From positions 7,737-71,736 of the forward strand of contig JAQUPI010000003.1 of the NCBI GenBank assembly GCA_028716705.1: a stretch of DNA of 64,000 nt, read 5' to 3'. The stretch comes from Candidatus Omnitrophota bacterium (GTDB lineage Bacteria; Omnitrophota; Gorgyraeia; Gygaellales; Profunditerraquicolaceae). How positions within the stretch are numbered: position 1 is the stretch's first letter; every line of letters begins with the position of its first letter. Below the pieces are notes generated by a model. That model had not been told where the DNA came from and made no database searches. It was given only the letters and a program-made list of their open reading frames with translations. Both the position numbers and the translations under genes were made by a program. Shown here piece after piece: positions 21,001 through 59,828 of this stretch.

Positions 21001-24000
21001 TCCAAGGTTCGGAGATTATCTGCCGGAAGAAGAGATATACTCGGTTGAATTCATACCGGGAGCGGATCTGGCAGGAATGTTGCGGCAAAAAGACATCCTG
21101 GAGCAGAAGAAGCGGCATTTAAAGGAGCAGGCGATAGTCCTTGCTCTGCAATTAGCCAAATCTCTGGGAGAGGAAGACCATGCGCTGGAGTTCCTGATAG
21201 AGATGAGGAATCCGGCTAACGTCATGTTCCGCGATGCCGGAGGAAAATGCGAGCAGCCGGTTTGCGTCGATGTCGGATATTTTACGACCAGGGAGCCGCG
21301 CGAAATAATGCTTACCCTGGGAAATTACATAGACGGCATCTATTTTGGGAATAAGGAACCGCAAGAGTTTTTATTTAACGCGGTTTTAAAAGCCCTGGGT
21401 GACGAAGAAGGCTGCGCTTTCCTTAAACAGGCGTTTGACAGCAAGCTTAATTATCACATAAAGGAAGAATTAGACGCGTATTTGAATAAGAAGACCGGAG
21501 TGAGTCTTCAGAAAGAAAAGGTCACCGCTATCTTTAAGGCCATGGCGAGGGGTAGGGCCGCTCCTGCCAACGCTGCCTTCAAGCAGCTCTGCAGGGACTT
21601 CGGTTTTGACCACCGCGACGCGAATGCCGGGCTAAAAGCGTTGATCATCGGGGTAAAGAGAGGTTTTATCGCGGAAAAACTGGATATAAGGCATCTTTCG
21701 GGAAAGATAAGCAAGATAACGGCGATAACCGGGATGCCAATAGAGATGGACATAAATAATTTAGAGAATGACATAATTGACTTGATAGATGCCGGTTATA
21801 CGGAAGAAAAAATAACCATGGAACTACTTATAGATAACGCTTCCTTGGAAGATTACATAAAGCGGATCAACGATAAATTAGACATATCGGCCAGACAGGT
21901 TCCTGAGGCCGAGGTCATAAATTGGGGTAATGAAAAAGAAGATGACGAAGTTCCTCTCTCCCAGGATGAAAAAAAGATATTAAGGGCAAGAGGCAATTCT
22001 TTGAAAGAGATGATGCCTGAGTTAAATATGGGCGGAGCCCAGATCAGCAATCTCATTTCCAGTATTTGCATTAAATTACAGGCGAACAGTTTCTCGGAGG
22101 CAAGAGAGAAATTCTTCTCCTCAGTAAAAGCGTATGTTATAAGCAAGGGGTGCCACTCGCTCATAGCCGAAGAGGTAGTAAGAGACGCGGATCCCCTGAA
22201 AACATCCCAAGTCCTTATGAACGAAAAACAAAAACTGACCGAGCAGGGTTATACGCTTATTTTAGCTTTATTCCTGGCGATAAGAGAAAGAAATTCAAAT
22301 AAGGTTGTGACGCAGGGATTAAAAGAAGCCATAAAAGAATCCTTTGCTACCGGGAATCCCAAGTGCGGCGATTTCCTTAATGAACTCTGCGATATTGCCG
22401 GCAAAGAGCGCATCGTCAGCGAAATAAAAAATATATTATTAACGGACATGGAAATACTGGAAAGGCTCTGCTCGGAAGAAACCCTGTCCAGATTAAATGC
22501 GTTAATTAAAGGTATCGCTCCGCAGATTGTCCTCAGGACAGCAAACCAGGTACGCATTTTAAAAGAAGTCGTGGCTTCTTCCAAAGCTAAGCAGGTATTG
22601 ACTCAGAAAGATATAGCCGGGAAGATCGGTGTTTCCACGGCTACCGTCAGCCGGGACATAAAGATCCTTCAGGAATCCGGATTTATCGATGTCCGCAAGA
22701 TCATCATTGAGAAGAGGGTTTATCTCTTCGGCCAGGCCCCCGAGTTCATCCTTAATGATGCGGAAGGGGCGATCATGAAAGAGTTGGAAAGGGCGAATTT
22801 ACCTTTATCGGCCCGTGAGCTGGCGAAAAACACCGGCTTACCCAAGAACAACATCCGCAGGAATACCAAAAGCCTCAAGAAAAAGGCACCGGTCAAAGAG
22901 GTTCTGATCAATAAGAGCGTCAAATTTTACCTGGGAGATAAACTTCCTAAATTTATCCTTACGCCTATCGAAAAGCGGATCCTGGAAATACTCTGGAGAA
23001 AAGGCCCTTCGACGCAAAAAGAAATAGCCGGGGATGGGATATCAAGCGGCATGGTCAGCGTTTATGCTAAAGAATTAAAGAGTTGGGATTTGATCAAGGC
23101 GCAGGGTGAAGGCAGAAGCAACGTTAAGCTTAGCTTGACTCCGGAAGGAGCGAAATTTATAGCGCCTGAAATAAAGTTCGGAGTGGCGCAAGGTAATATA
23201 GGGGATAAGAAAGTTTATTATTTTGCGGACGGAATTCAGAATGAAGATATGCAAAACGTATGTTTCTTCCAGGGCAACATGATAAAGATATCCGCTGCCG
23301 CTGACAAAGGTAACAAGCTGCCCTTATCAAAAGAATCATTGTCTTTAAGAATCGCGTCTGTAATGGATAAGTTATATGGCTTTACGAGCCTGAAAGAATT
23401 ATCGGGTATCTTAGGCATACCCGATTCTACGCTATCTCCTTACATGAAGCGCTGTTTCAACAGGATAAACAGCAGGCGCAGGAAAAAAGAAGAGCCCGTG
23501 TACCGGGTCTACAACGATAATACGGTGCAGGCGATGAGAAGCGTGATCGCGGTGCTCAAGAAATGGGGAAGGATAACCGTGGAAGAACTGGCTCTGCAAT
23601 TAAGCCAAGGAAATAGATGCGTAGAGAAGAAACAAGTCATTTCCATCGCCGCGAGGATCGATTTTGCCCTGGTGAACTGGTGCATGGTCAAAAACAATGA
23701 AGAGACGATAGGGATCCAGGGGCTTGAGCCGGTATACAACCGCAATAATACGCAAGAAATACTGGCAGGGTTAGGCAAAAAATTCAGAAAAATATCCATG
23801 AAACAGATAGCGGACGCTTTAAGAGGCATGCCTGAATCTAATGTCAGGCGTTTGATAGAGGCGATGCAAAAGGAAGGCACTCTTCCTTTTGAGGAGATCA
23901 TCCCTTACGAATCGGTGCGCAAAGACATAGTATTTAAGGCGATGGAGGAATTGTCCGCGGAGCGGGCCTCCGGATCATCCGCCAAGCAAATAACTGAAAG

Positions 24001-27000
24001 GGCGATAGCCATAGGTTCGGCATTAGGGGTGCCCATATCAAAAGATATCTCGCTAAGGAAGATACGCGCGATAAAAGAGGAAGGTGTGTTGCCGGCCAAG
24101 ATCATCTCCCATCCCAGGACGCAACAACCGCTCCGCAAGGCCAAGACGCCGAAGGTAAAGGCGCGTAAAAGCACTAAGAAAGCGATAGACCTCCGCTCAG
24201 CCGGCGTTTCAGCCCGGGAAGTACCGCTGGTTAAGCCGGCTGATCAGCCCGTACAGGAGCGTGACGCCGCTTGGTATGCGAGCAAGGATTTTGAGGTCGG
24301 GAAAGAAAGAAGGAACGGCTCAGCGCAAAACGGAAATAGAAATACTCTGCCGGAAAAGAATGTGACGATATTTATAAAACAAGTAAATAAAAAGGTGGAA
24401 TTTTCCATAAAAGAAGCGCTTATCTTGATCGCCAAAGGGTATTCGGCTAAAGAGATCCGCGAAGAGATCGGCAACGGCTTGCTTGAAAATCATATCACGT
24501 CATTCAAAATAAGCATCTTTGTGAAATTAAAAGATACGGGCCTGAGGATTATCGCGGAAGATACTTTGGAGTCATTAAATATGGCCAGGACTATATGTTC
24601 GGGACCAGTAAGAGAAGAACTCATAAAACGCGGATATCCATTGCCCGAAAAGCTCGCGGATAAACCGGCCGTATCAATAACCAGCCAGCCCAGGCAGGCA
24701 GGATTTTACGTTAACGGAGTGTTAAGGGCCCAATTCACCGATGCGGTTGATCCGGAAGATTGCTCTGCCAGGCGCATGCTAAGCGGGAATGGAACCTATA
24801 TCTTTGATGCGGGCTGCTTCTGGAGCGCGAGGATAGAGTATCTAAGGAAGATAGGGGCGATGCTTCCGCAGAATAATCAAAGGAAGCGGTGCTTGTACAT
24901 AGCTTCTGCCGCGGACTATTCTACGGCGCAGATAGTATCTGACGGCGCGAAAGAGACTATTTTTGTGGAAAAACTTCCCTTTGAAGGCGTGGCCGGGTTT
25001 CCCGAAGAGGAATTAGAATATTTCAAAAATTCGTACCATATGCAAGGTTTTGACAGCAACTTCCATCACGTATGCAGCCTCGGAAAAGGGATAGGTATAA
25101 AACAGTACCTGCTCTGGGAGCTTGAAGCGATGGGGGTTAAGACGCAAGCCGTAAGCGTTGAATTTGACACAGCCTTAAACGCGCACAGGATGAAATTTAC
25201 TGTCCCGGGCGCATCGCAAGAAAGAAGCATCCTCTATTTTAATACAGAGGCGGAGGCCATAAGCAGGTACCCGCCGTTAGTTGACCTTATCCGCGAAGGG
25301 TTGGATTCTTTTATTATAAAAGCCGCGGTAGATGTTTGTCTCAGCGATGAAACCATAGGTCTGATAGTTACCTCTATGAACCCTGACGGGATGATGTTCT
25401 TAGACGCGAATTTTGCCTTTTTCAGCGGATCCCTGGAGTGGTTAAACGAGGAACAAATGCGGCAGATCAGGGCCTTAGAGAGGGGCCATGGTTTTGCTTT
25501 CGGGTACAAAGAGATAATCCTGGCCAGGCCCAGGAAGCTTTGGGGAATAGGGCCCAGGAAGGCGGGATTTTATATTAATGGGAAACCTGCCGCGCAATTC
25601 ACAGATGCGGTTTCAGAGGATGACGCAGGTTCGGGGCAGCATGGAGCGCAAGGTTCTGTAGGCCCGTCTGCGCACAAAGGGTTAAGGGCGATATGCTTAT
25701 CATTGATCCTTATCTTGTTATCAGCCCGCGCGGGCGCAGTTAATGCGATGATCGACCTGGCGATCCCCATGAAATCCGCCATAGCGAATACTGTTTCCAT
25801 CGAAAGCCTGTCAGTAGATAACGCGACGGTCGGCGAACGCTTCGCCCATAAAGTCGTTCCATGGGATAGGTTTAATGTGTTGGACAGGCCTGTCTCGCTT
25901 GAAGAAAAGGCCCTTTTGAGAAAGTTTTCGCAACCATCTGCCGCCTACGATAATAGCTTCACGCAGCTAGTAGATAAAATATTTGAGAAAGAAGGGTATA
26001 CAGACAACCGTTTAAAGGAGATCGGCAAGGACGACCCGAAAAAACTGGTTCAGCTTATTGCGGAAATTGTCTACAGGAATGTCCAGTACGATCATACAGC
26101 GTTAAAGGCATCGCAAAAATACAATAAGATTTTTACCGCCAATCTTGGCAATAATAATTTAACAGCTCTGCTTGAACAGGGGTTGACCGCGGAAGAAAAA
26201 ACCTTATTAAACAGAAATCTGACAGAAGTCATTAAAGAAGGCGGTTTATGCGATGATATATCCGGAGTATTTTCAGCCGTCGTCGATTATATGCAAAAGA
26301 AGAACGTATTGACTCAAAATTTATATGCCAATAATTTTACCGGCATAAAAATTGATTCCACGAACCCGATGGCTTATCCTTATACAAAAATAGGCTGGCA
26401 TGAATGGAATAGGATATTTACGCTGGACGAATCCGGAAACCTTATATCGACGCATATCGATATAACAATATATAGCCCTTCTTTGACATGGCTAGATTCG
26501 GTTTTAACATTCAAAAAATCCGGATTAAACGCCGTTGATATAAACCACCGCATTAATATGGGTGTATTGTCCGATAAAGGTTTCAAAACAGAGAGGAATC
26601 TGCATTTAGATAATATCCGCCGATATTTTGCGTTCATAAACTCTACCGTTTCCTACGATCCTAAGATACTTTTGCCGATGCATGTACGAAGAAAAGGCAA
26701 GGTTTCTTCAGTTCCCGGCAAAGGCGAACCGGAAGAAGAACCTTTATTCGATAAATTTAAATGTTACAAAATAGAAGATGACGGCAGCCTTACTGTAAGT
26801 TCTGACTACGGATCTTATCAGGACAACATAAAAACAGGGTTGTCCAAATATTCAGAGAAAGTATTTTGCGTTATGGGGATTAACCGGGTTGTCCTCGCGG
26901 AAGTTTGGCCCGGCCTGAATATCAGCTCGCGCCGCTACTGCGATTGCGCAGGCATAGTGATCAAAGACGGGACATGGATGATCGTATTCCACGTATTATC

Positions 27001-30000
27001 CAGCCTTCTCAGAAAGGCCTGGCCGAATATCCTAAAGATCTATAAAGATCGCGCATCCAAAAACGCGGAAGCAGTCATATTTGGTATCGAGCAGGACGTC
27101 CGCTGGATGAAGAAGAATACCCCCCCTGGCGTAAAAATCATTAAAGAAAAGATTAATGCCTATCCTTCTGAGGCGTACGACCTGTACACGGATGCCGATG
27201 AAGGGGTATTGGCAAGAAGCATTAAAGGCCCTTCCGGGATAGAACTGGAAATATATAGAGACGAATTCAGGTTCACTAACATCGCTGAAAGGGATCCTTA
27301 TTCCGAAGACAGAAGCGTCATGGCGGAGGACCTTAAGGAAAATGGCATAAATGACGAAAGAGTATTATCTGCGATCAGAAATATCCCGCGCCATGAATTT
27401 GTCCCTGAAGAAGAGATGAAAGAATGCGCCTACCTTTACGAGAACAGGGCTTTGCCCATAGGCGAAGGCCAGACTATCTCTTCCGCCAATACGGTTGCCA
27501 TGATGACCCAGGCCCTGGGATTAAAAGAAGGCGACAGGGTCCTTGAGGTCGGCACAGGCAGCGGATACCAGGCAGCGGTCCTCGCAGAAATGGTGGGCAA
27601 AACCGGCAGGGTTTACACTATAGAAATAGTAGAGGCATTGCAAAACAGGGCAAGGGATCTGCTGTCCAAGCTTGATTATGACAATATTGAATATAAAGCT
27701 GCCGATGGGTATGAGGGATGGGCCGAAAAAGGGCCGTTTGACGCCATTATCATTACAGCTGCTTGCAGCGAGTATCCATTGCCTTTGATCGGGCAACTAA
27801 GAGAAGGCGCGAATTTAATCTTCCCGCTTGATTCGGGGATCGAAAAGCTTTTGGTCATAAAGAAGGCAGGCAAAGATTTAGAGGTAAGCACTTTAGCAGA
27901 GCGCATTAAATTCGTGCCTTTCGTAAGAGGCGCGGTAAAACTATATCCGCGGCCAGTCCAAACATATAAGAGAACACTCTTTGACGAAAAAGAGTATCTT
28001 TCAGCGAAAAAAGAAGCCGCGCAGAAATTAGCCAAATTAGACCCCCAGGAAGCAATATCTACATTCATCCAAGTTATAGAGAATTCTATTTCTCCTTTGT
28101 CAGAAGTACTGCTGGAACTGGCAGGAAATATCGGCACGCCGGAAGCGGTCGCATTCATTATAAAAGCGTTAAACAACAGGACCATGTCTGTCAGGCAGCA
28201 GGCTATTTCACTTCTGGAGAAGTTTGAAGATGAAAGGATCTATGGGGCATTATTGCCTGTTATTTGTACAGCCGGTGAATCCCTCGTACAGGAGGCGATC
28301 CGCGTGCTCTATTCCAAGAAAGAAAATCCCCTGTACAGAAAAGAAATATTAAAAGCGGTTATCAGCCAGGATCCCGCAACGCGCTTTGGCGCGGCGACTA
28401 TGCTTGCCACGATCATCGATGATGAAACAATGCGGATGTTGGATTTACTCGCCAAATCTGATCCGCAGGAGGAAGTAAGAAAACACGCGAAGTTCGTATT
28501 GGTTTGCGTACAGAGCAGGCTTGAGGAAGACAAATTAACCGCAGGGATAAAATTAAAAGAGGACAAGGTATTATCTCTTATAGATTCGTTCGCTTTTGAA
28601 AAGAAAGCGCCGCTTAAAGCGATCGATATCGGTTCGGGAGCGGGGGAATTCAGGCGTAGAATAAACATCCTTTGGCAGGGAAGGGAGATAGACATTGAAT
28701 GCGTGGATTCAAATAGCGAAGCGGCAAAAATAGGGTTTATCCATTATGGCATGCCGATATTGATAAGGAATGCCGAAGATCATATCTTTGAAGAAAAAAG
28801 TTTTGATATCGCCTTTTTAAACTATCCTAATCCGGGCTACATGAAAGTGTTAAAATTGCTCCCAGAGGCCGAAAGGATACTGCGGGATGGAGGTTTATTC
28901 TTTTTTGCCAGCAGCCGGGACGATTACCAGCCTGAAGAGATAAAGGATATATTGTCAAGGTCGCATTTTGAAATAATAGCTCAATACAACGGAAAAGAAA
29001 ACATACCGGCGGGCTATCCGCTAAGCCAATGCGCGGAGCAGGCAGTTGCATCCGGCAATATCGGTCCGGAGATGGTCTATCTTATAATTGCCCGCAAAAA
29101 TCGTACAGAGCTGTTATTAGGTTCGGGCGCTGTCAAAGATCATCTGAAGGATCCGGGGATTTTATCCGCCAGGCAGGCAGGGTTTTACATTAACGGGCAG
29201 TTAAGAGCGCAATTCACGGATTCGATTTCTGAAGAAGACGCTGCCGTTGGAGATCGCCGGTTCCCGCAAGATCGATTGAGCCCGGGTCCCCAGGTTCCAG
29301 ACGTTGAGATTATCAGGCTCTTATCCGGCAGCGATACGAAAGAGATAGATAGGGCGCTTGAAATCATGGAAAGCATTCACGACCCGGAAAGGGTATCGTC
29401 AATTGTAGAAAAGGTATTTGCCAATCGCCGGCTGGAGCCGGTATTTATGGAGGAGGATAACACATTGGCAATAATCGGGGAAAACAGGAGCCATAAGGGC
29501 ACTTATGAGATCGCGGAATTACAGGGCGAAGATCCATACGTTCATTTCTATAATGCCTGGATATCCGAAGAATTAAGAGGCAAGCGTATCTTGCCGTTAT
29601 TACTGCGTTGGGCAGCCGCTCATGGTTCCTTCCGTAAATTTTCCGGATGGCGGACAGAGGTGGATAACGCCAATTATATGTCAGCCAGGGCTTGGTGGCG
29701 CAGCGGATTTACTGACATCGAACTATTTGAAAGGGAAAGCAAAGAGCCGGTCAGTTCGATAGAGGAGCTTAAGCCTTCAGAAAAACGCTATATTGTAAAA
29801 GCCAGATTCCCGTTATGGACAAAACAGGCCGGCATACCGAATGTGCCTTTTGATAAAGGCGCGGTACGCTTGACATGCAACTTGGGTAACATGCTTCCGG
29901 GCAGTGTAAGCACGGCTTATTTGGCTTTTCCCGATCCCGGTGACCTGCGAGCGCAGGGAAAAGGATTCGCGGAATGCGCTTACAGGATCTTAAGAGAGGG

Positions 30001-32797
30001 CGGAGAGTTTTTGATATATTACGAGGTGCCGATGTCTTCAGCCGCCGTATTCTTATATGAAGAGAACATAGAGGGATTTGTAATATCCCTGAAAAAAGCG
30101 GGCTTTATTGTAGAAGGGCCGGAACATATCCTGTCTTCTGTGAATTATGCCGTAACCATAAGAGCTAAGAAGCCGCGGAAGGAAGACTCAATTTCAGCAA
30201 AAGCGCTGCGGGAGAAAGCCGTCCCGATCCTTTATGATCTGGGGTATTCAAAAGGATCCCTGGATCCGCTGCTAAAGGAACTTGAGACCCTGTTCAAGGA
30301 GATCGATGCCAGAATGGGGCTGGCCAGGCTTCAAAATGAATTAAGCCAGGCCCTGCAAGCGAATAATGCCGCGCGTCTTATAGCCCCTCTTAACGGATTG
30401 AATTCGCTGTTTGAGGAAAACAACTATAAGAACGTTTACCGTCCAAGGCCGATAATAAATCTATTGATCAACGGCTTAAACGCGGAGGATATCTTTGAGC
30501 GCATAATGCAGACCGAGATCCCGACCATGCTCAAGCTTAAAGCCAATGAAACGCTCATTTCCTGCACTGCCATTTCCCAGCTGGGTTACACCGTTTTGAG
30601 GTCATTGGGCGTGGATGCCAAGGGAGCGATCTCCCCAAGGCACGCTTTCCTCGGAATGGAGCTTAGCGGCGGCCGGGTCCTGTTCATTGATTTCTACAGG
30701 AATATATTCCGTGCGGTCAATATCGCCAGGTATTACAGGAAAGAAGGGGTGTATTTTGTCCTTAAGGAAAAATACAGGCTCAGCCGGAAGGAGTTAGGGG
30801 GGATTACGGAAAGAGTTGCCGCTGTTAAGGGCGGAGAAAGAATAACTGTGGTAGAGAGTTTGAGAGGCAACAAACTTCTGCATTGGAAGTTCTTTTACAT
30901 TAAAATGATCAGTTCCGGGGGAGTTTCCCGCCTTATCCATAACAACCTGGGCCTGGCTTACGGGACTCTAGGCATCTATAATGAAGCGATCTTGGCCTGC
31001 AAAAAAGCCATAAGATTGGACCCGAATTACGCGGATGCCTACAACAACCTGGGGATCATTTACGCCCACCTGGGGCAATACGATAAGGCTATCACGGAAT
31101 TAAGGAAGGCAAAGAAATTGAATCCCAACGATAACGGCATCATTTCCAACTTGGATAAGCTTTATGGTATGCAGGGCGGGATAGGCAAAACCAGTTACCT
31201 GGCTGAAGGCGAACCGCTGGGCATAGACACCCCGGCCGTATCTTTAAATAAGATGTTATTAGGCTGGGCAGGAAGATACAGCGAAGATGAGATTTTGATG
31301 CTGATAAAAAAAGCCAAGGCAGAAAAACGCATAAAGAACCCGGGGCTTAAGCTTGGATTACGTTTATGGATGGCGCAAATACGAACCAACACTTTATTAG
31401 AAACCCTGGCCAAACAAGGGCGGATCGCGGGGCCTCCTTTTATCAAGGGTTTCCGGTTGATCATGAATGAGAATAACGCGCTGACATTCGGCGCTTACAT
31501 CAAACAAGGCATCCTTTATATCGAGCAACCCCTCCTTCAAGACCGTTCCCTCGAAGAGATCATCCTGCATGAAAAAATCGAGATTGTTGCCAAAGACCAT
31601 GCGATAGCGCAAGGCCTGACAAGAGAAGTTCTCACCACTTCGCTGCGCGTACATACATCTAATATCAGGCATATCATTGGCACGGTGCTTAAGCACCGTT
31701 ATTTCCCGCTGTCGATTTTTATTTCCATGATCGCGTTTACCGCCCTAATTTTTACCTACAGGGACACGATTATAAATTTGGGCGTTTTTGATTACCGGCT
31801 GGCGGCATTCCTTACTTCGGCAGTGACTAATGCCACCGTTTTTATTCCGGACACAGGCCTTGTTATAATCCTTTCCCTGGCCGCGGCGTATAATCCTGTT
31901 ATAGTGGGGATTATGACCGGTTTGGGAGCGATCACAGCATTGCTTATGACCTATTTTGGAGGCCGCATTATCCGTTCTTTAGTAAAAGGAGACCGCATAG
32001 ACCGTATCGAGCAAAGGGTAAATCACGGGATAGAGAAACGGGGATGGCTCTTTATCCTATTCGCTTACGGCATCCCCATACCTTCTCCCCTTCCTGAGAT
32101 CACGGGCATAGTAGCCGGAGCCACGAAGTTTTCCATTTCCAGATTCCTTATGTTTATCGTATGCGCTACGGCGGGAAATGTGATAAAAAGCGTTTTTTAC
32201 GCCTGTATCGGCGCATGGCTGTTGAATTTATACGGGCCTGCAGTATTGAACTTTTTCAAGGAGAATGTGCTTATCTTCGCGCCTTTAGCGGGAATAGCCG
32301 TGATCTTCATCGCTTTTGTAGCGATCTTAAAGCTGGTCCCGGAAATAAAAAGGATCCCCGCGTTTGCGTCTATAGACAGGTTACTGACAATTGAGGGCAT
32401 AAAGTTGTTGTTTGAGAAATCCGGGCAAGGCATAAGGATTTCGAAGATAAGCGTAAAGAAAATCAGCATAAAGCCGGTCAGGATAATCATAAAGGGAATA
32501 AGGATCAGGGTCAGGCCGTTGAAAATAAAGGTCAGGGCGCTCAGGATAAAGATCAAAAAGTTAAGAATAAAAGTAAAGAGGCTAAAGATAAGTATAAAGA
32601 AGCTGATTATAAAGAAGGGGGGGATTTCGGAGAACCGGGAAGAAAAAGCCTGCCCGGAAAATAATACAAAAAGAACGCAGGAGAAAACTAATAACCAGGA
32701 CCTTGCCATCGAAAATCTGAGCAATGGTATGGAATCTATGCAGGGAGGTAAGACGGCGCAGATAGAGAATGCCACGGTTATTTCCAGCCGGATATAA
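2..32797 (+). CDS. Giant multidomain protein, 5'-partial. The reading frame is open from window position 2. The first start-like codon in the window is GTG at 185. More than 10,930 aa lie in the window.
   Basis: Continuous stop-free frame for 32.7 kb in ~50% GC DNA. Many recognisable protein motifs occur in this single frame (listed as sub-features). The frame is still open at the window start, so the true start lies upstream. Confidence 0.9.
   Translation, partial: [10931 protein letters not shown]
440..960 (+). other. Domain in giant ORF: class I SAM-dependent methyltransferase fold
   Basis: Motif I '[12 protein letters not shown]' (glycine-rich SAM loop) followed by an acidic residue ('VEIDE') and a post-II region, in the usual Rossmann order. 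Confidence 0.6.
5692..7240 (+). other. gpmI: Domain in giant ORF: 2,3-bisphosphoglycerate-independent phosphoglycerate mutase (iPGM/GpmI-like), apparently full length
   Basis: '[10 protein letters not shown]', '[22 protein letters not shown]', '[10 protein letters not shown]', 'TSHTLNPV' and the C-terminal '[23 protein letters not shown]' match the iPGM family signatures in correct order over ~515 aa. Confidence 0.85.
7255..7790 (+). other. Cluster of ~4 predicted transmembrane helices inside the giant ORF, immediately after the iPGM domain
   Basis: Hydrophobic stretches '[40 protein letters not shown]', '[16 protein letters not shown]' and '[17 protein letters not shown]'. Confidence 0.5.
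10175..10198 (+). other. CxxxCxxC motif (radical-SAM-like [4Fe-4S] cluster motif) in the giant ORF
   Basis: In-frame 'C-S-V-Q-C-D-Y-C'. It is a single motif and no further radical-SAM landmarks were recognised. Confidence 0.3.
17300..17935 (+). other. Domain in giant ORF: RelA/SpoT-type HD ((p)ppGpp hydrolase-like) domain
   Basis: '[14 protein letters not shown]...[10 protein letters not shown]' and downstream '[13 protein letters not shown]' mirror the SpoT/RelA HD-domain blocks ('GEPYI.HPL.VA', 'LLHDVVEDT', 'IKLADRLHNMRTL'). Confidence 0.6.
20000..20470 (+). other. Domain in giant ORF: CHAT / caspase-like (clan CD) peptidase-like segment
   Basis: '[12 protein letters not shown]' (His block) and '[14 protein letters not shown]' (Cys block) resemble the His/Cys dyad motifs of CHAT domains. 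Confidence 0.35.
22580..23150 (+). other. Three helix-turn-helix / winged-helix DNA-binding-like motifs inside the giant ORF
   Basis: '[30 protein letters not shown]' (DeoR-like HTH), '[24 protein letters not shown]', and '[39 protein letters not shown]' (MarR/TrmB-like wHTH). Confidence 0.45.
26238..26475 (+). other. Domain in giant ORF: transglutaminase-like cysteine-protease core (C...H...D)
   Basis: '[17 protein letters not shown]...[23 protein letters not shown]' shows the Cys / His-x-Trp / Asp spacing of the transglutaminase-like superfamily. Confidence 0.3.
27340..27935 (+). other. pcm: Domain in giant ORF: protein-L-isoaspartate O-methyltransferase (PIMT/Pcm)
   Basis: '[15 protein letters not shown]', '[19 protein letters not shown]', '[19 protein letters not shown]' and 'GRVYTIEI' match PIMT blocks in order. 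Confidence 0.8.
28045..28515 (+). other. HEAT-like helical repeats in the giant ORF
   Basis: Repeated '[25 protein letters not shown] / [10 protein letters not shown] / [13 protein letters not shown] / EEVRKHA' helical-pair pattern typical of PBS-lyase/HEAT repeats. Confidence 0.45.
28600..28990 (+). other. Second class I SAM methyltransferase-like domain in the giant ORF
   Basis: '[11 protein letters not shown]', an acidic residue at 'IECVDS', and 'FDIAFLNYP...[10 protein letters not shown]' are in the usual motif I / II / post-III order. Confidence 0.45.
29461..29735 (+). other. GNAT-like acetyltransferase segment in the giant ORF
   Basis: '[41 protein letters not shown]' resembles the GNAT motif A region (R/Q-x-x-G-x-G/A-like with the following helix). 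Confidence 0.3.
30925..31160 (+). other. TPR repeats (about 2.5) in the giant ORF
   Basis: '[63 protein letters not shown]' fits the canonical 34-aa TPR consensus. Confidence 0.7.
31690..32365 (+). other. C-terminal multi-pass TM block with DedA/SNARE-associated-like signature in the giant ORF
   Basis: Several hydrophobic helices plus '[48 protein letters not shown]', which resembles the DedA/TVP38 family core. Confidence 0.4.
32400..32625 (+). repeat. Periodic K/I/R-rich low-complexity tail near the C-terminus of the giant ORF (in-frame ~9-nt periodic DNA repeat)
   Basis: '[60 protein letters not shown]'. The DNA shows repeated AGGATAAAG-like units. Confidence 0.8.
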
Positions 32798-32848
32798 AAT
32801 TGGTTTTAAAAATAGGATTAATTAACAAATTTAGAGGAGGTGAGAAGG

Positions 32849-33178
32849 ATGGACGAGAATAACGGGTTTAAAGAGGACCGCAGGATTTTCGAAAGATTTT
32901 CTGCTGTCATGCCCGCGAATTTGATCGATCTGGACGCGGGAAAGGAATTGGAAGCAACTACTTGCGACGTAAGCGCAAAAGGCGTAGGGGTAGTGTGCGA
33001 AGAGCATTTAACACCGGGAAACCGTTTAGAGTTGTGGTTAAGGATCAAAGACGGGAGAGAACCGCTTTACACCAAAGGCACGGTAATGTGGGCCAGGCCG
33101 GAAGAAGGCAAATGCAGGGCGGGTATCTTGTTGGAGAGGGCAGAATTGATGGGTATGGCGCGAATACTCAGATCGTAA
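32849..33178 (+). CDS. Single-domain PilZ protein (predicted c-di-GMP receptor). A GTG at 32840 is an alternative start.
   Basis: AGGAGG RBS at 32835-32840. Canonical PilZ motifs 'RRIFER' (RxxxR) and 'DVSAKG' (DxSxxG). It lies 52 nt after the giant ORF stop. Confidence 0.8.
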   Translation: MDENNGFKEDRRIFERFSAVMPANLIDLDAGKELEATTCDVSAKGVGVVCEEHLTPGNRLELWLRIKDGREPLYTKGTVMWARPEEGKCRAGILLERAELMGMARILRS

Positions 33179-33231: not shown

Positions 33232-33259
33232 TTGACAAAACGTATTTATATGTTATACT
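33232..33259 (+). promoter_or_regulatory. Sigma70-type promoter: TTGACA - 16 bp - TATACT with TGn extended -10
   Basis: TTGACA at 33232-33237 and TGTTATACT at 33251-33259, at near-consensus spacing. Confidence 0.55.
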
Positions 33260-33392: not shown

Positions 33393-34916
33393 ATGTTGAG
33401 AAAATTCAGGCTAAAGCTGGTTTACGGTTTCATATTCAGCCTCTTTATTCATGCCTTTTCTTTTGCCATGGCGAAAGAAATCAACATCCCCAGCCAGTTC
33501 GGTAGCACAAAAGAAATATTCCAGCCCGCGAATCCCGGCCCTTCCGCAGAACGCACCATCATCCATATACAGGACGCGCATTGTAATTATGAGGCCCAAA
33601 AAAACATGGCCCAGCTCTTAGATTATTTGGCCAAAGATGACAATCTTAAACTGATCATGGTCGAAGGCGGTAGCGGGGACGTCAGCTTGCGGTTTTTAAG
33701 GGGCTACGCGGATAAGAAGGCCAGAGAACAGGTCGCGGAAAAATACCTTAAGGCGGGAAAGATCTCCGGCGAAGAGTATTTGGATATCGTTTCCGATCAC
33801 GCTATAGAGCTTTACGGGATAGAGGATGAAGGCTTGTATGAAGCGCATTTGGCGAGTTTCCAAAAAGTGGATTCTTTCAGGCAGAAGGCGCTGCAAGATT
33901 TAGGGGCCTTAGCAGGCATAGTAAATGGGCTCAAATCCAGGATATATCCGGAAGATCTGCGGCGTTTAGACGAACAAAAAAGCAGTTATGAGGGGCAAAA
34001 GACCGCGTTAGCCGAATATTGCCGCTTCCTTAATAATACAGCCGCAAAAAAGAGGATCGGCCTTGGCGCTTACCCGCACCTGGGCGCCTTTTCAGAGACT
34101 GCCCGCCTGGAAAAAGAACTGGACCTTAGGCAAGCGGAAGCCCAGCGCAACGCTTTCATCAAGGATCTGGCCAAGCTTTTAAACGAAAGAGAGGCGCAGA
34201 ACCTTATCCTTATGACCCAGGGTTTTAAGGCAAAAATGATCACTCCTGAGAAATATTATTCTTTTTTGTTGGACACCGCCACCGAACAAAAGATCAACCT
34301 GAGCCGCAGGTACCCTGAGCTTGGCGCTTATATCAGGTACGTGACCACAAGCGGGAATGTAGACGCGGCCGAGCTTTTAAAGGAAGTAAACGCGGCAGAA
34401 GAGAAGATAAAAGACGCTTCATTGAGCAGCCCTGAACAGAAGAAATTATCCGAGATTGACAAATCCCTCCATATCTTGACCAAAATACTGAACTTGGAAT
34501 TGACCCCTGAAGATTACGCGTATTTCAAAGAAAACACGCGCCGGTTCATGACTGCCGGTTGGATAGGTTTTTTAAATGAAGAGTGCGACAAATATAATTT
34601 TTCCACCCGGCCTTTTTTTGTCAAGGCCATCGATGAAAACCTGAAGGAGCTTGACGGATTTTACCGGTTGGGAGTAGCAAGGGAAGAGGCCTTTATCAAT
34701 AATTTGGCGGCCAAGCTCGACGATTCAAAAGAAAAGACCGCGGCGCTCATTACCGGCGGGTTCCACACGCCGGGCATTACCCGCAATTTAAAGAACCGCG
34801 GTTATTCTTATATAGTAGTCACCCCGGTGATCACGCAGAAAAGCGAACCGGACCTTTATTTTTCCGTGCTAAGAAGCGAGAAAAGACAGCCCGTAAGGGT
34901 TTCCGATGAAGAATAG
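33393..34916 (+). CDS. Exported hypothetical protein (507 aa) with an N-terminal signal peptide; possible ChaN/EreA/Tiki-superfamily fold
   Basis: RBS GGAG. Hydrophobic N-terminus 'LVYGFIFSLFIHAFSFAMA'. The 'TIIHIQDAHCNYEAQKNMAQLLDYLAKDDNLKLIMVEGG' pattern is reminiscent of the ChaN/EreA N-terminal block (weak). The stop overlaps the next gene by 11 nt. Confidence 0.7.
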   Translation: MLRKFRLKLVYGFIFSLFIHAFSFAMAKEINIPSQFGSTKEIFQPANPGPSAERTIIHIQDAHCNYEAQKNMAQLLDYLAKDDNLKLIMVEGGSGDVSLRFLRGYADKKAREQVAEKYLKAGKISGEEYLDIVSDHAIELYGIEDEGLYEAHLASFQKVDSFRQKALQDLGALAGIVNGLKSRIYPEDLRRLDEQKSSYEGQKTALAEYCRFLNNTAAKKRIGLGAYPHLGAFSETARLEKELDLRQAEAQRNAFIKDLAKLLNEREAQNLILMTQGFKAKMITPEKYYSFLLDTATEQKINLSRRYPELGAYIRYVTTSGNVDAAELLKEVNAAEEKIKDASLSSPEQKKLSEIDKSLHILTKILNLELTPEDYAYFKENTRRFMTAGWIGFLNEECDKYNFSTRPFFVKAIDENLKELDGFYRLGVAREEAFINNLAAKLDDSKEKTAALITGGFHTPGITRNLKNRGYSYIVVTPVITQKSEPDLYFSVLRSEKRQPVRVSDEE

Positions 34917-37900
34917 ATTAAATAGAAAACAATTAAAAAGGAGAATGAAAATGAACGCAGGGAATTTCCACAAGAGTTTATTGGCCAGGATAATGAGCCT
35001 TATCATTATCGTAAATTTCATTATTACCACCGGCCCTGTGAGCCTTTACGCGCAGGACATGTTGAAGGCGCCGTCAGCGGTCCAGAAAAATGACAGTCCT
35101 GTCCAGAATTTGATCGACGATCTCAGGGCGACGCAGGCAGGCCGTGAAATAGCCGCCTTTAAACGGATCGGCATACTCACCAGCGGCGGCCCGGCTTCCG
35201 GACATAACGCGGCCATTTACGCGGCAGTCGAAAAAATGAAAGAGCAGGGCATAGAGGCAGTGGCGATCCTGGACGGTTTTGACGGATTATACGAGGAGAA
35301 ATTAGTCAGCCAGGCACGGCCCCTTAGCCTGGAAGAGGCAAGGTCCCAGCGCAATAAAGGCGGGACAATGCTCGGTACTGACCGCATGAACCCCTTTGAG
35401 GCTAAAAATGTCGCAAACGGAGTTCCGCAGGCGATCTGGACGAATATCCAGAAGCTGAAACTGGACGGCTTGATCGTTCTCGGAGGCAACGACAGCCAGA
35501 GCACGTCTTATAAATTACAACAAGAGCATCCGGATTTCCCGATCATAGGCCTGGCTAAGACTATGGATAATGATCTGGCTTTACCTGAATTGGATGCTTT
35601 AACCTACGGTTTTGATACTTTTGTCAGGGAAACCACAAGGGCCCTGATAAAAATGATCCGCGATTGCCGCTCTATGAGAAGGATCGGGGTGGTTGAGGTA
35701 TTCGGCAGGAGCGCGGGGCATGTAGCGTTGCACGCCGGAGCCAATGTCAGGGCAAGCCGTACACTTTTACCCGAGGAAGGCAACCTTGATCTAGAGCAAC
35801 TGGTGAGCGACCTTAGAGAGAGCAAAAATAATGATAAATACAGAGCAGCCTTGTTAGTAGTTTCAGAAGGCATAAGTATAAGCAAGGATTACAAGAATAA
35901 CGCAGGCATATTGGAAAAAGCTTTTGCCGAAGACGAAGTGGCCAAGGCGGCTTTTGAAAAGGCGGTTAAGGGCGCCAAAAAAGATTCCTTCGGTAATCCT
36001 AAACTGGAGAATACCGGGAAAATCATCGCCGCGGTCTTGCGCTCGCAGGGTTTAGCCGTGAGCGAAGACCAGGTTAAATACATCGCGCGTTCGGCCAACC
36101 CTTCAAAGTTAGATATCGCCATGACAGAGCTTATAGGCCGCGCGGCGGTAGAAAATCTTTTGCAGGGAAACCATGGCCGCATTTTATACGCCTATAACAA
36201 TCAAGCCAGGTCTATCCCGTTCGCCTCGGACGTGGGGGGCAGAGTAGCGGACCTGACAGGGCATAAGCAGCTGTATTTAAGGGCGAACCAGGCCTTTGAT
36301 ATTAAGGTATCGGATAAGCCGGCTCTGAATTTTGCGAATACGGCTGAAGTCAATAGCGCGATAGCCGGCATATTGGCTGTCAGCGACAAGGCTGTCAGCG
36401 TGCTTGATGAAGAACGCCTGAGGAGCCAGCTTATTGATAACCTGGTTTATGACGCTACATTCGGCAGCGATAAGGAAGTAGTTAAGCTTTGCCGCCGGCT
36501 CATTAAAGACACCGCAGCCGCCCAAGGCGCGGTGCTCGGTTCTGTTTATGAGCTTTACAGGGCGAAAGCGAAAGATAAAAAACAATATACAGTCCCGGCG
36601 ATAAATATCAGGGGCATGGGTTACAATACCAGCAGGGCGGTATTCGCCTCAGCCATAGATAACAATGCCGATAAGTTCATCTTCGAGATCGCAAGGAGCG
36701 AGATAGGTTATACGGCTCAGCGGCCGGCGGAACTAGTTACCTCCGTTTTAGCGGCGGCGATCAAGGAAGGCTATAACCTGCCTGTATACCTGCAAGGCGA
36801 TCATTTTCAGGTTACGCTTAAGGACTATACGGCAAGCCCGGAAAAAGCAAAAGATTATATTAAAGGGTTGATCCGCGAGGCGATAGAAGCGGGCTTCTAT
36901 CAGGTAGACCTGGATATGTCACAACTAGTGGATTATACCAAGGCCGATGTTCAAGAGCAGCAGGAACTGAACTACAAATTAGTGGCTGAACTTACCGCTT
37001 ACGTGAGGGATTTGGAAAGGGAATTAGGTTTAGACAGAGCGGGTATCGTTGTTAATTTGGGCGGTGAAATAGGAGAGATCGGCAAGGGCTTAGCCGAAAA
37101 GGACCAGAAGAACAGCACCGTCGCGGAATTAAGGGCGTTTATGGACGGTTACAACGCTGAATTAAAGCGCCTCAGCCAGGAAAAAGGATACGAGCTGAAC
37201 CCTATCACAAAAATCGCGATCCAGACCGGCACTCAGCATGGCGGCATCAGAAACGCCAAAGGTGAATTGGTCAGGGCCAAGGTTAGTTTTAACGCCATTG
37301 CCGAACTCGGTAAAGTAGCCAGGGAAGAATACAGCCTGGCGGGCGTAGTGCAGCATGGCGCGTCCACCCTTCCCGAAGATAATTTTACGCTTTTCGCGGG
37401 CAACACCCCGGAAGGCCTGGTTATTGATGAAAGCCTTTTGAATGAGGCTTCTAAAAATATATTGAGCACCAACCCCGCCGCCGAAGTGCATCTGGCTACG
37501 GCTTATCAAGACACGATCATCGATCATCCCAGGATGCCCGCTTCTATGGTTTCCCAAATGAGGGAATACATTTTCAGCAAAAATCCGGTTAAGGAAAACC
37601 AGAACGCGGACGGAGTCTTTGTTTCCAACCGCAAAAATGTTTGGGGCCCGTTCAAGGCCCAGGTATGGAACCTGCCTGCTGGCGTGCAAGAAGCTATGCG
37701 CGACAGCCTGCGCGGACAATTCGACGTGGTCTTTAACAATATGGGGGTGAAGAATTCATCCCAGGCGCTTATCGCGCAAAAGGCCTCCGAAAAGGCAAAG
37801 CTTGTTAAAACAAGACTGGCTATAAATAACCCCGGTGGGCAAGAACGGGAGCTTATCAGGCTTTGGCTGGCAGGCAAATCCGCCGGTATCGACTTAGTCG

Positions 37901-40900
37901 GCGTAAACGGTATTTCTCCGGGCAGCCTGTATTATCTTTTAACCAAGGATTTCACCGCCTCCCCGGATGTCAGGGCATGGTTCACCGCTAATTTCACTTC
38001 GCTGCCGGAAGGCATAGGCGACAAAAACAAGAAACTCATTCTGCCTGTCACTGAAATTATCGACGCTAAGGACTTGCCTTGGAAGAAATTGAACCCGGAT
38101 GTCGTGCTTGAGGGTTCGGATCCGCAGCTGGCGGCCAGCCATAAGAGCCAGGGCGCGAAATCCGTCATTGTTGCCCACCCGGCTTTAACCGCGGTCAGCG
38201 CCTTAATGCCGGTCATTTCCGTCATGGGCGACCAGATCAAAGGCATCAATTTTACGGATATCCAGCCGCCTACGCCTTTACAGCGCGGCCTTGATAATTC
38301 CGGTCCGGACCCGGTATTGATGCGGGCCATGGGGATTAACCTCGTTCCTTCATTAAGAAAGGACATAGACAAATATGTGCAGGCATTATGCCCCGCGGAT
38401 CTAGCCGCGCATATAAAGGGCGCGATCAATTTTGCGCCTCAGGCGTTAGGTTCATTGCTGGACGTTCATATAGTCGTAAATAAAGATACTGACGCCGCGG
38501 CTATAAATAAACTGTTCAAGGCCGCGATCGAAGGCGTTTTAAAAGGCAAGGTATCTTACTCGCAGGATTCCTCTCTGGTATCCGTGGATACTTACCAGCA
38601 GCCGCAGCTTATCTTCTTGGCCAACAACACGAAGGTTACCGGGAAGAGGATCGTGCATTTACAATTCATGCACAATGAGGAGGCGACCTTTGCCGCGACG
38701 CAAGTACCTTTATTACTGCAGGCGCTGAAGGAGGGAAAAGCCCCCTCGATTATTACATCCAAAGATACTCAAACTATCTCCGCGGACGCTCAGGTAGTCT
38801 TGGATATCATCCAGGCAGAGCAGTCTAAGATGGCCAGGCCCGCGTTCCTGGGTACCAACCTGGCTTTTATTCCCGCTCTCGACGGCAACGTCAAGCCGCG
38901 TATCGTAGTTCGCGGCAAGGCCGTTAGTCCCGCGATCGTAGGTATAAACGGTCCCGGAAGAGTGGGCAGGCCTTCGACCTGGGCAATGCAGGGGGACCCG
39001 AATGTCGACCTGAGGATGATCAACGGTTCTTCCAGCGCTTTGATCCTGTCATGGTTATTGTCCGAAGATTCCGTGCAGCAGTCAATATCAAAGCCGGTCA
39101 CAAGAATAGTAATAACCCCCGCGCAGTTAAAGAGGGAAGTTTCCTCTCTGCTGGGCAGCTACAGTATCGAGCAGGTAAACGGATTCTTGACCGGCCTGCT
39201 TAGCTCTCAAAGATTATACCTGCTTAAAGAAAAAGAAGAATTCGTTCCTTACATCAAAAACCTCCTGGCCTCTTGGGGCAAGCCCAGTAATGAGCTTGAT
39301 TCCGCGGCCAATTGGTTGCTGAAGAGCCTGGTAGGCGTTTTAGATATTAACGGTAAAAAAGTCCTGGTAGTTAACGAGAGAAAAGCGATCACGGAACTTC
39401 CCTGGGACGTAGCAGGCATAAAGACGATCATGGAGTGTACCGGGGATCTGAAGAACGCTGACGAAGCCAGGCAGCATCTGGCGCATATTTCCGGAGGCAA
39501 GGTGATCATATCCGCTCCGGCCGAAGGAGCAGGCCAGTCTATCGTCTTGGGCGTAGTAGAGCCCAGCCGCGCTGCTCAGATCGTGGATAATGCCAGCTGC
39601 ACCACCAACTGTTTAATGCCTATGGTCGCGGTTTTGAATAAGGCATTCGGCGTGCTCATGCAGGAGATCACCACTGTCCATGCTTATACCACCGACCAGA
39701 CTTACGCCAGACAGGCAACACATAAAAAGGAAGCTACCCGCGGGAGGGACGCAAGGACGAACAGCCTTCCCGGTTCTACCGGAGCTGCCAAAACCGCCGC
39801 CGTTATATATCCGGACCTTGCCGGAAGGTCCGACGGTTGGGCAGTGCGCACGCCTCACGTCACCGGTTCTGCCGTAGCCCTGACCGCTACACTTAAGGGC
39901 AATGTGACCAAAGAACAGATACAGGCGGCGTTTAAGAGCGCCAGCGAAAAGGAAATGGCCGGGATCATGGCTTATACCCAGGCCCCGATCGTTTCTTCAA
40001 TGATCATCGGCAACCCGGCTTCCAGCATCATTGACGGTAATGCCATTGAAATCATCAGCTACGACGAAGAACTTGACCAGACCACAGCCGGTATTACCTC
40101 CTGGTATGACAATGAATATGGTTTCTCAAACCGTATGGTGAACCTTGCCGTAGCCCTGCAAGGCTTCTCTTTGATCAAAGGGAAAGCCCTGGCAGACATA
40201 GGCCCCAAAACCGTCGAGTTATTTGAAAACAAAATAAAAGAGATCTCTCCTGCCACGGTAGTCTGGAACGGGCCGATGGGCGTAGTGGAAGTTGCGGCTA
40301 CGAGCAAGGGTACTGACGGAGTGGCCATGGCGATCACCGCCTTAGGCGATAAAGTAGTTAAGGTTGTGGGAGGGGGGGATACCTTAAAGACGCTTTCGGA
40401 AGAAGAACGCGAGAAATTCACGCACGTCTCAACCGGCGGCGGCGCCTTCCTGGAGGCATTTCAATTCGGCGTGGATAATCTCCCGGGGATTAAGGCCCTG
40501 ATCGATCCTTCCACGGGCAAGATGGCGACGATGGACGGGCTCCTGCCGGTTTTGAAAGAGGGAGATACCGTCTTGATACGAGTTGACTTCAACGTGCCTT
40601 TGGATTCGCAATTAAAAGTAACAGATAGCACCAGGATCAAAGAAACAATGGTTACCATAAGGCCGTTGTTAGAGAAAAAGGCCAAGGTCATCCTGATGAG
40701 CCATTTAGGCCGGCCTAACGGGAAATTCGACGCTAAGCTTACCATGAACCCGGTGGCTTATGAACTGCAGAAACTCTTGCTAAAAACCAAAGTACATAAA
40801 TTGGATGACTGCGTGGGTAAGCCCGTGCAGGATTTTATCCAGAATACGGTAAAGCCCGGTGAAGTCGTAATGCTGGAGAATACCCGTTTTCGGTTAGACG

Positions 40901-42408: not shown

Positions 42409-42453
42409 GCCACACTTTAACACAATAACACACCTTAAAACGGAGGTTATGTC

Positions 42454-48299: not shown

Positions 48300-48629
48300 A
48301 TGGACGACCGTAGGGTTTTTGAGCGCATCGGCACGAAGCTGCCCGTCAGATTCTTAGACCCCATAAGCGGCAAAGAAGGTACCGCGGATACAACTGATAT
48401 CAGCGCCAACGGCCTTGGTATGGTGACCAATGAGAGCTTAAGAACCATGACTCCTTTAGAGATGTGGCTGGGAATCCCCGATAAACACGAGCCCCTTTAT
48501 ACGCGAGGCCAGGTAGTCTGGTCAGAATCCCTCCCCAGTTCCGGAGAATACCGCATCGGCATACGGCTGGAAAAAGCAGAATTAATGGGCTTAGCCAGGG
48601 TGTTATGGCTTAAGAGGCGCGCAGGTTAA
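48300..48629 (+). CDS. Single-domain PilZ protein, a paralog of the one at 32849-33178
   Basis: RBS AAGGAGG. Motifs 'RRVFER' and 'DISANG'. The sequence is colinear with the first PilZ, including the shared C-terminal 'EKAELMG.ARVL'. Confidence 0.8.
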   Translation: MDDRRVFERIGTKLPVRFLDPISGKEGTADTTDISANGLGMVTNESLRTMTPLEMWLGIPDKHEPLYTRGQVVWSESLPSSGEYRIGIRLEKAELMGLARVLWLKRRAG

Positions 48630-49970: not shown

Positions 49971-49973
49971 ACG

Positions 49974-50852: not shown

Positions 50853-50857
50853 AAGAG

Positions 50858-51706: not shown

Positions 51707-51711
51707 AAAAA

Positions 51712-53319: not shown

Positions 53320-53325
53320 GGCTGG

Positions 53326-59807: not shown

Positions 59808-59828
59808 AAGTTTTACATCCATTAATAC

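Follow-up and report, generated by a model that had tools for sequence, protein, structure and literature searches.

A predicted split pair of PilZ genes between a giant gene and a sugar-uptake locus in a Candidatus Omnitrophota bacterium

Omnitrophota encode giant proteins of 10,000 to more than 80,000 amino acids (aa), which are among the largest known. Here we describe a stretch of 64,000 nucleotides (nt) from a Candidatus Omnitrophota bacterium (GenBank assembly GCA_028716705.1, contig JAQUPI010000003.1, positions 7,737 to 71,736; hereafter the window), in which two small genes for PilZ-domain proteins, PilZ1 and PilZ2, are found directly behind a giant open reading frame (ORF) and directly ahead of sugar-importer genes, respectively. 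The closest described system belongs to the same phylum. West-Roberts et al. (2023; bioRxiv 10.1101/2023.11.21.568195, section 11, Fig. 7C) reported that most Omnitrophota giant genes immediately precede at least one pilZ homolog, followed by carbohydrate importers, and that transporters dependent on a substrate-binding protein (SBP) and glycosyl hydrolases come after pilZ. The same preprint assigns GGDEF domains to many 'Archaeovorin' giants, notes that glycolytic and PPDK domains occur within giants or close to them, and describes a conserved locus resembling a type II secretion system or type IV pilus (T2SS/T4P) upstream of giant genes, and it already speculates on a link between giants and cyclic di-guanosine monophosphate (c-di-GMP). 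The association of giant, PilZ and importer is thus already known, and an earlier note on this DNA, which was aware of no described pairing of this kind, has to be corrected on that point. A literature search combining Omnitrophota and PilZ returned no other paper treating the topic, and a 2026 preprint on giant-gene neighbourhoods makes no mention of PilZ.

The published account shares with the window the order of giant, one or more small pilZ genes, and SBP-dependent transporters with glycosyl hydrolases. It consists of two sentences and one figure panel and does not contain positional classes of PilZ, fusions of two PilZ domains (di-PilZ), a pair split by a glycolytic block, or transcription signals. 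Compared with its description, PilZ1 stands immediately behind a giant, whereas PilZ2 corresponds only loosely, as it follows a 1,895-aa fusion and no giant; an SBP gene, two permease genes, an MFS gene and glycoside hydrolase (GH)-like genes follow PilZ2. Our additions are useful but modest, namely a probable split tandem pair, its di-PilZ relatives, a quantified enrichment, predicted distinct transcription units, and searches in which neither a docking domain nor GGDEF was found. All genes from position 1 to 63103 of the window lie on the + strand, and the elements on which the argument depends are as follows.

1..32797, + strand: giant ORF, >10,931 aa, open at the 5' edge of the window
32798..32848, + strand: spacer between giant ORF and PilZ1, 51 nt, with GGAGG at 32836-32840, 8 nt 5' of the ATG
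32849..33178, + strand: PilZ1, a 109-aa single-domain canonical PilZ; narrow-clade paralog directly 3' of the giant ORF
33393..48141, + strand: separating block, made up of u507 and two fusion genes of 2500 aa and 1895 aa
48154..48208, + strand: terminator-like element directly past the stop of the 1895-aa ORF, 17-bp hairpin and U-rich tract
48300..48629, + strand: PilZ2, a 109-aa single-domain canonical PilZ; widespread paralog directly 5' of the sugar ATP-binding cassette (ABC) importer genes
48681..63103, + strand: conserved sugar-uptake/glycosidase locus headed by PilZ2

With moderate confidence, we favour the reading that the two PilZ proteins are c-di-GMP receptors integral to a module in which a giant gene is followed by one or more PilZ genes and then by an SBP-dependent importer and glycosidases. 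According to this reading they form a tandem pair that is split here, PilZ1 remaining with the giant and PilZ2 with the importer, and they would switch the module in a ligand-dependent manner. Small and highly conserved, they lie between the giant and the sugar-uptake genes and are the module's only obvious regulatory handle.

The two paralogous ORFs of about 110 aa pointed out in the earlier note are both real; each encodes 109 aa, and their products are 50% identical (E 1e-33). In the hidden Markov model search proposed there, both exceeded the gathering score of Pfam family PF07238 (22.5 bits), with 42.5 bits for PilZ1 and 37.4 bits for PilZ2. The PilZ region covers residues 3-93 of the 109 aa, and the Pfam search detected no other domain in either protein. 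PilZ1 carries the motifs RRIFER (R12...R16, nt 32882-32896) and DVSAKG (D40...G45, nt 32966-32983), and PilZ2 carries RRVFER (R5...R9, nt 48312-48326) and DISANG (D33...G38, nt 48396-48413). In a profile built from 32 homologs, RxxxR is invariant and DxSxxG is at least 90% conserved, and the two are in register with RRQYVR and NISAGG of Bacillus subtilis MotI/YpfA (5vx6); the motifs that the earlier note had regarded as intact are therefore aligned with known c-di-GMP-binding positions. The same 32 homologs share conserved residues outside the ligand motifs, in the segments IPDxxEPLYTRGxVVW and EKAELMGLAR, and the C-terminus of the PilZ2 type is a basic tail, LWLKRRAG.

Because a profile search against the PDB gave only marginal matches (E of at least 0.03, the best being MotI/YpfA 5vx6), a fold search was needed to place the proteins. 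AlphaFold2 models of both (predicted local distance difference test scores of 91.2 for PilZ2 and 85.1 for PilZ1) contain a six-stranded barrel and a C-terminal helix. In each model RxxxR sits in a disordered N-terminal segment ahead of strand 1 and DxSxxG at the turn between strands 2 and 3, which in PilZ2 span residues 26-34 and 38-43. Foldseek searches of the PDB retrieved exclusively PilZ domains as top matches for both models (all 43 top matches in the case of PilZ2), most of them solved with c-di-GMP, including MotI, BcsA, Alg44, YcgR, PA0012, MapZ, VCA0042, MrkH and PlzA. By sequence and modelled fold, PilZ1 and PilZ2 are canonical, stand-alone and ordinary members of the PilZ family, with predicted c-di-GMP binding. 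The PilZ1 type is rare, with 29 homolog clusters and one 100% identical member named 'PilZ domain-containing protein [Candidatus Omnitrophica bacterium]', and the PilZ2 type is common, with at least 162 homolog clusters and identities of up to 83%.

Among characterized PilZ proteins, one that compares with the window pair is MapZ (PA4608; 5xly, 5y4r) of Pseudomonas aeruginosa, a stand-alone, c-di-GMP-dependent protein-protein adaptor that binds the methyltransferase CheR1. MapZ is a structural match and resembles the pair in its single domain, its size (about 110-120 aa), its RxxxR and D/NxSxxG motifs and its C-terminal helix; however, it is only 18-19% identical to the window proteins, its other conserved residues differ, and the context in the window is unrelated to chemotaxis. 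The PilZ domains of BcsA (4p00) and Alg44 (4rt0), which are among the best structural matches, act as c-di-GMP gates of membrane polysaccharide machines and provide a functional analogy to the gating of a membrane-anchored giant or a sugar transporter. In those systems PilZ is fused to its target and serves polysaccharide export, whereas here it is always a separate small protein beside import genes. MotI/DgrA (YpfA, 5vx6) and YcgR (5y6f), which account for the best sequence-profile match and a top fold match with the motifs in register, are flagellar-motor brakes with a PilZN-like N-terminal domain preceding PilZ, in contrast to the single-domain window proteins, which have no flagellar context. 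PlzA of Borreliella burgdorferi (xPilZ-PilZ, 7mie), which is linked to sugar and glycerol metabolism in Borrelia, has two PilZ-like domains of which the N-terminal one is degenerate and in this respect resembles the di-PilZ relatives described below; it is a weak structural match (E 1e-3) to the window proteins, which are single-domain and show no indication of nucleic-acid binding.

A comparative scan at one genome per species yielded 80 loci, almost all from Omnitrophota. Large ORFs were defined as those of at least 1400 aa, and the other genes of the same giant-enriched loci were used as control, which makes the comparison conservative. The first PilZ gene stands directly behind a large ORF in 26 of 38 testable cases; for the other genes the figure is 14 of 371 (Fisher p 4.6e-22, odds ratio 55). 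In the 32 loci with adequate flanks on both sides, a large ORF is found within 4 kb upstream in 29, a transporter or GH gene downstream in 25, and both in 24; the remaining loci show a large ORF only (five), an SBP gene only (one) or neither (two). A single open-ended ORF fills the entire upstream flank in 18 of the 28 loci with at least 9 kb of flank. On the other side, the SBP gene directly follows PilZ in 54 of 74 loci, the gene order 3' of PilZ matches that of the window's sugar locus in most of the 80, and the importer proteins are 65-90% identical across the surveyed loci. The enrichment next to giants in related genomes that the earlier note had proposed to look for was thus found, and the counts support the view that PilZ placement behind very large ORFs is non-random and conserved across the phylum.

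The individual gene orders vary around this theme. Giants of 10,971, 13,055 or 17,569 aa are followed by a PilZ1-type gene, a u507 homolog and a glycolytic fusion; a 24,677-aa giant is followed by a 229-aa di-PilZ, a 113-aa PilZ, the SBP gene and the rest of the sugar locus. One locus without the glycolytic block (L006) has a PilZ1-type gene and two further PilZ genes ahead of the genes from MFS to ROK, another (L009) has a 1765-aa ORF, two PilZ genes and ABC genes (the SBP being identified by BLAST), and a further order runs from u504 through a PFK fusion and a PPDK+PGK fusion to PilZ and SBP. On the upstream side, the contig ends within 1.5 kb of the PilZ array in 21 of the 80 loci, which would fit assemblies breaking inside repetitive giant genes; public annotations would accordingly under-report the adjacency of giants and PilZ.

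Two PilZ domains are present at 40 of the 80 loci. In 32 cases they form a single ORF of about 230-250 aa, the di-PilZ, in which Pfam confirms two stretches; the N-terminal domain keeps RxxxR and has DxNxxG (D-I-N-x-K-G) in place of DxSxxG (for example in L030, L044, L064, L085 and L094). The family spans both layouts, and the window proteins are single-domain, with no PilZN or xPilZ N-terminal domain. In a neighbour-joining tree, PilZ1 falls, together with its orthologs, among the first copies of unfused tandem pairs, and PilZ2 among the last copies, which adjoin the SBP gene. The block of u507 and glycolytic fusions lies between giant/PilZ1 and the downstream genes in L001-L004 and L008, ahead of a single PilZ and SBP in L050, L062, L078, L082, L088 and L092/93, and between the giant and a single PilZ also in L047 and L055. 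The simplest reading of these arrangements would be one conserved order of giant, a first PilZ where present (PilZ-a), u507 and glycolytic fusions where present, a last PilZ (PilZ-b) and the sugar locus, and PilZ1 and PilZ2 probably represent a tandem pair that has been split in this genome by the u507/glycolytic block.

A single tandem pair at the junction of giant and sugar locus fits the comparative data better than the repeated pattern of giant ORFs followed by PilZ that had been proposed earlier. The appearance of one PilZ after each block would be due to the position of the glycolytic block in this clade and would not reflect a rule of one PilZ per giant. PilZ2 does follow the pair of 2500-aa and 1895-aa ORFs, as noted, but these are multi-enzyme glycolytic fusions and not a giant block of the usual kind. 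It is also divided from the 1895-aa gene by the strong terminator-like hairpin and lies 51 nt from the SBP gene.

The transcription units in the window were all deduced from sequence signals, and these assign the two PilZ genes to different units. PilZ1 follows the >32-kb ORF as the earlier note stated, although at 51 nt and not 52, the ORF stop being at 32797. The spacer folds only into a weak A/U hairpin (-4.4 kcal/mol) and contains no terminator-like hairpin; across species, 37 of 43 spacers between giant and PilZ likewise lack a terminator, and most measure 0-100 nt. PilZ1 most likely closes the transcription unit of the giant gene, with predicted co-transcription. PilZ2 starts 158 nt past the stop of the 1895-aa ORF, and the hairpin at 48154-48208 in this interval has a folding free energy of -26.7 kcal/mol (z-score -5.19), which none of 200 shuffled sequences matched. 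The 51-nt spacer from PilZ2 to the SBP gene is unstructured, and across species 58 of 62 such spacers have no terminator. These signals make PilZ2 most likely the first gene of the importer transcription unit, set apart from the glycolytic block by the putative terminator.

On this basis, a sequence of events can be proposed for the favoured reading of the pair as receptors integral to the module. Expression of the giant-gene unit would end with PilZ1, and that of the ABC-importer unit would begin, past the terminator, with PilZ2. A rise in c-di-GMP would lead to clamping of the ligand by the N-terminal RRxxxR loop together with the DxSxxG site, and the ligand-bound barrel with its strongly conserved C-terminal helix would bind a conserved partner within the module. 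At the post-translational level, this binding would switch both the attachment/degradation apparatus and the sugar uptake feeding that apparatus. Which partner is bound is the most conjectural step. The conserved residues outside the motifs (IPDxxEPLYTRGxVVW and EKAELMGLAR) point to a candidate partner interface, and the conserved PilZ surface together with importer proteins that are 65-90% identical, as against variable giant C-termini, argues for a partner that is itself conserved. Control of the module by c-di-GMP is plausible in these terms. For the chaperoning of giants, which had been suggested as another role, no evidence emerged; the C-terminal domain shared by the glycolytic fusions is not on the giant, and neither the giant C-termini nor the lysine/isoleucine/arginine-rich (K/I/R) tail is conserved across species.

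Several points weigh against this reading. Both c-di-GMP binding and the partner are predictions. The literature search gave no specific precedent for a PilZ protein regulating a sugar ABC importer. Among the 32 loci with adequate flanks, seven have no downstream transporter and three have no large ORF within 4 kb. The neighbour-joining tree was built from about 100 aligned residues and carries no support values, and the promoter and terminator calls are consensus-based. On the side of the giant, Pfam and motif searches detected no GGDEF, EAL or HD-GYP in the visible 10,931 aa, and GG[DE]EF is absent from 134,648 aa of large ORFs adjoining PilZ genes at other loci, whose giants were examined as C-terminal parts of up to about 3,300 aa each. 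Moreover, the last 700 aa of giants match only between near-identical relatives.

These last observations bear directly on a different proposal, which we regard as possible though tentative, that control is specific to the giant: the PilZ proteins would sense c-di-GMP produced by the giant's own GGDEF domains and gate its export, membrane insertion, processing or activity. The short spacers, with 37 of 43 free of a terminator, suit this idea, as do five loci in which PilZ stands behind a giant though no transporter follows (L033, L037, L040, L075 and L087). The presence of BcsA and Alg44 among the best structural matches adds a parallel in the gating of membrane polymer machines, and GGDEF domains occur in many 'Archaeovorin' giants (West-Roberts et al., 2023). 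In the visible giant of the window, however, the proposed GGDEF link finds no support and is neither confirmed nor excluded, and the C-terminal parts of the other giants lack the motif as well. Giant C-termini are unconserved while the PilZ proteins are 50-83% identical, PilZ2-type genes also occur behind glycolytic fusions without a directly adjacent giant, and PilZ2 of the window sits behind a terminator-like hairpin. Because the last 700 aa are not conserved across species, a conserved docking site at the giant C-terminus is unlikely, and the C-terminus or K/I/R tail was rejected as a general PilZ docking site. PilZ is fused to a giant in no case, the largest PilZ-containing ORF being 308 aa, although many other domains are giant-fused. 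The upstream part of the giant ORF was not found in metagenome contigs by an exact-match scan with the first 60 nt of the window.

Attention then turns to the downstream side, where the sugar locus contains the following genes.

48681-49970, + strand: SBP
49974-51706, + strand: two ABC permeases
51823-53319, + strand: MFS_2 transporter
53326-55689, + strand: GH2C-like/TPR protein, followed by u383
56911-58194, + strand: GH-like 427-aa protein, followed by a 554-aa TPR protein
59867-61102, + strand: ROK protein, followed by a coiled-coil protein
62078-63103, + strand: LacI protein

No ABC ATPase gene was found anywhere in the 64-kb window, and because of this the importer must use an unlinked ATPase of the MalK/MsiK type, which is a possible regulatory point. 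It is conceivable, if doubtful, that PilZ2 and the last copies of the pairs are simply leader genes of the sugar operon that regulate carbon flux by acting on this unlinked ATPase, on cytoplasmic loops of the permeases or on the glycolytic fusions, the giant being a mere syntenic neighbour. The immediate succession of PilZ and SBP genes in 54 of 74 loci and the downstream transporter or GH gene in 25 of 32 agree with such a role, as does the situation in the window, with a terminator-like hairpin before PilZ2 and only 51 nt after it. PilZ2-type proteins are conserved to the same level as the importer proteins (65-90%), the locus itself encodes no ATPase, and in loci that lack the usual genes (L012, L046, L057 and L087), PilZ is followed by LacI and another kind of sugar ABC system. 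The proposal lacks a literature precedent, as mentioned above, meets the five loci that have a giant and PilZ but no transporter, and leaves unexplained why PilZ1-type genes and first copies abut the stop codon of the giant with spacers of 0-100 nt. An exclusive tie of PilZ2 to the importer is not ranked first, as the link to an upstream large ORF is at least as strong (29 versus 25 of 32 loci).

A more elaborate version, which we consider rather unlikely, would treat the split pair as two c-di-GMP checkpoints of one feeding machine, PilZ1 acting on the co-transcribed giant surface protein and PilZ2 on the ATPase-less importer or on the glycolytic mega-fusions. If true, c-di-GMP would tie the import of nutrients and the flux through glycolysis directly to prey or host attachment in an ultra-small bacterium living as a predator or episymbiont, and a link from PilZ to an ABC importer or to a glycolytic complex would constitute a new class of c-di-GMP output. 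In practical terms, the positional classes, the di-PilZ fusions, the lack of any fusion to a giant or of a C-terminal docking domain and the predicted separate units narrow the search for partners, and the same refinements make the hypothesis testable by simple binding assays.

PilZ proteins are also known for regulating secretion ATPases: control of PilB by PilZ is an established mechanism, as in the PilZ/FimX/PilB systems of Xanthomonas and Pseudomonas. The type IV pilus PilZ proper (PA2960 / XAC1133) is degenerate, lacks RxxxR and D/NxSxxG and is not known to bind c-di-GMP. That the window proteins act in this way on a GspE/PilB-type ATPase of the T2SS/T4P-like system upstream of giants is improbable in our view. 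The profile of the family weakly matches type IV fimbriae PilZ structures of Xanthomonas (3dsg, 4f48, 7lkq; E 0.04-0.09), and a conserved T2SS/T4P-like locus precedes giants (West-Roberts et al., 2023). PilZ1 and PilZ2, however, fall outside the PilB-binding class, which is without c-di-GMP motifs, in that both motifs are intact and conserved in them. The window, which starts inside the giant, contains no secretion genes, and their distance from PilZ1 and PilZ2 would exceed 30 kb.

Still less probable is a nucleic-acid-binding regulator of the sugar locus, transcriptional or post-transcriptional, in the manner of MrkH or Borrelia PlzA. The latter controls sugar and glycerol use in Borrelia, both proteins appear among the structural matches, the di-PilZ relatives with their DxNxxG N-terminal domain resemble the xPilZ-PilZ layout, and the tail LWLKRRAG of PilZ2-type proteins is basic. 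The window proteins are nevertheless single-domain 109-aa barrels without a recognisable DNA-binding domain, MrkH and PlzA rank low among the matches, and the locus already has dedicated regulators in ROK and LacI. Finally, chance adjacency or an annotation artefact, which could be suspected since small PilZ domains are common and short ORFs invite over-interpretation, has practically no probability left and was excluded by Pfam scores above the cut-off, two confident models, conservation of the family in at least 80 species, the flank counts and the enrichment test (odds ratio 55, p 4.6e-22).

The block that separates the two PilZ genes, together with the signals that precede it, is composed as follows.

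33232..33259, + strand: predicted promoter, TTGACA-16-TATACT, 11/12 consensus positions (Omnitrophota promoters being uncharacterised)
up to 33392, + strand: structured leader, about 130 nt; two hairpins, of which the second is long and has U6 at its end; z-score -5.67
33393-34916, + strand: u507, 507 aa, with an N-terminus judged by eye to be signal-peptide-like
34906-42408, + strand: 2500-aa fusion of PFK, a GatZ-like aldolase domain, GAPDH and PGK
42454-48141, + strand: 1895-aa fusion with PPDK

The promoter and leader probably mark the start of a separate u507/glycolytic-fusion unit 3' of PilZ1. The promoter hexamers are invariant in four loci, and the hexamers and hairpin arms are kept in L001 (10334-10526), L004 (10334-10537) and L008 (about 2256-2461) and partly in L050 (2040-2167, a partial equivalent). 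The leader 5' of u507 is a candidate attenuator or riboswitch-like element, and it might also terminate the giant-PilZ1 transcript. Rfam gave no match at gathering score across the whole window, and the leader region (33150-33420) yielded only noise-level matches; a c-di-GMP riboswitch or another known riboswitch near the PilZ genes was rejected accordingly.

At their C-termini, the two glycolytic fusions have a domain of about 226 aa in common (about 41722-42399 and about 47455-48129; 51% identity), which has no Pfam match and is absent from the giant. The earlier note had raised this shared domain as a candidate for pairing with PilZ; it is present only in the two fusions and was rejected as a general PilZ docking site. 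It could serve both fusions as a docking or oligomerisation module. Homologs of u507 with 36-62% identity stand regularly 5' of glycolytic fusions in many Omnitrophota loci. Relatives contain other combinations of fused enzymes, such as TIM/FBPase_3/PGK/GAPDH (2763 aa), PFK/aldolase (1177 aa) and PPDK+PGK (1880 aa), and the composition of these mega-fusions suggests a physically coupled glycolytic assembly.

The giant ORF itself encodes a DOT1-like methyltransferase, iPGM, an array of helix-turn-helix (HTH) domains, PCMT and other methyltransferases, and HEAT and TPR repeats, and its C-terminus consists of a VTT/DedA-like membrane domain followed by the K/I/R-rich tail. The cofactor-independent phosphoglycerate mutase (iPGM) domain, embedded at about 5699-7198 of the window, is complete and corresponds to the glycolytic step between PGK and PPDK. 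A cluster of domains of the winged-helix/HTH DNA-binding type occupies about 21764-23560; the literature has proposed that the protein acts at the cell surface, and for such a role this cluster is unusual. The tail (about 32435-32617) comprises about 60 aa with an alternating pattern (RISKISVKKISIKPVRIIIKGIRIRV...) just past the VTT/DedA-like domain, and it was found only in the window giant and its closest relative (L004), not in other giants. In two other giants (L035 1-9908 and L036 1-9957), a C-terminal segment is 62-63% identical to the window's 427-aa GH-like protein (56911-58194); it would therefore seem that, in these cases, a giant ORF has either taken up a gene belonging to the downstream sugar locus or been the source from which that gene was copied.

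Some genomes have two PilZ loci (L044/L085, L016/L022, L023/L045, L015/L028 and L020/L027). In the metagenome-assembled genome STD1_209, which contains the first of these pairs, both loci start with a giant, a di-PilZ and an SBP gene; L044 is cut by a contig end within the first permease gene, and the sugar locus of L085 is complete. As STD1_209 holds two such loci, the giant/PilZ/sugar module appears to have been duplicated within this genome.

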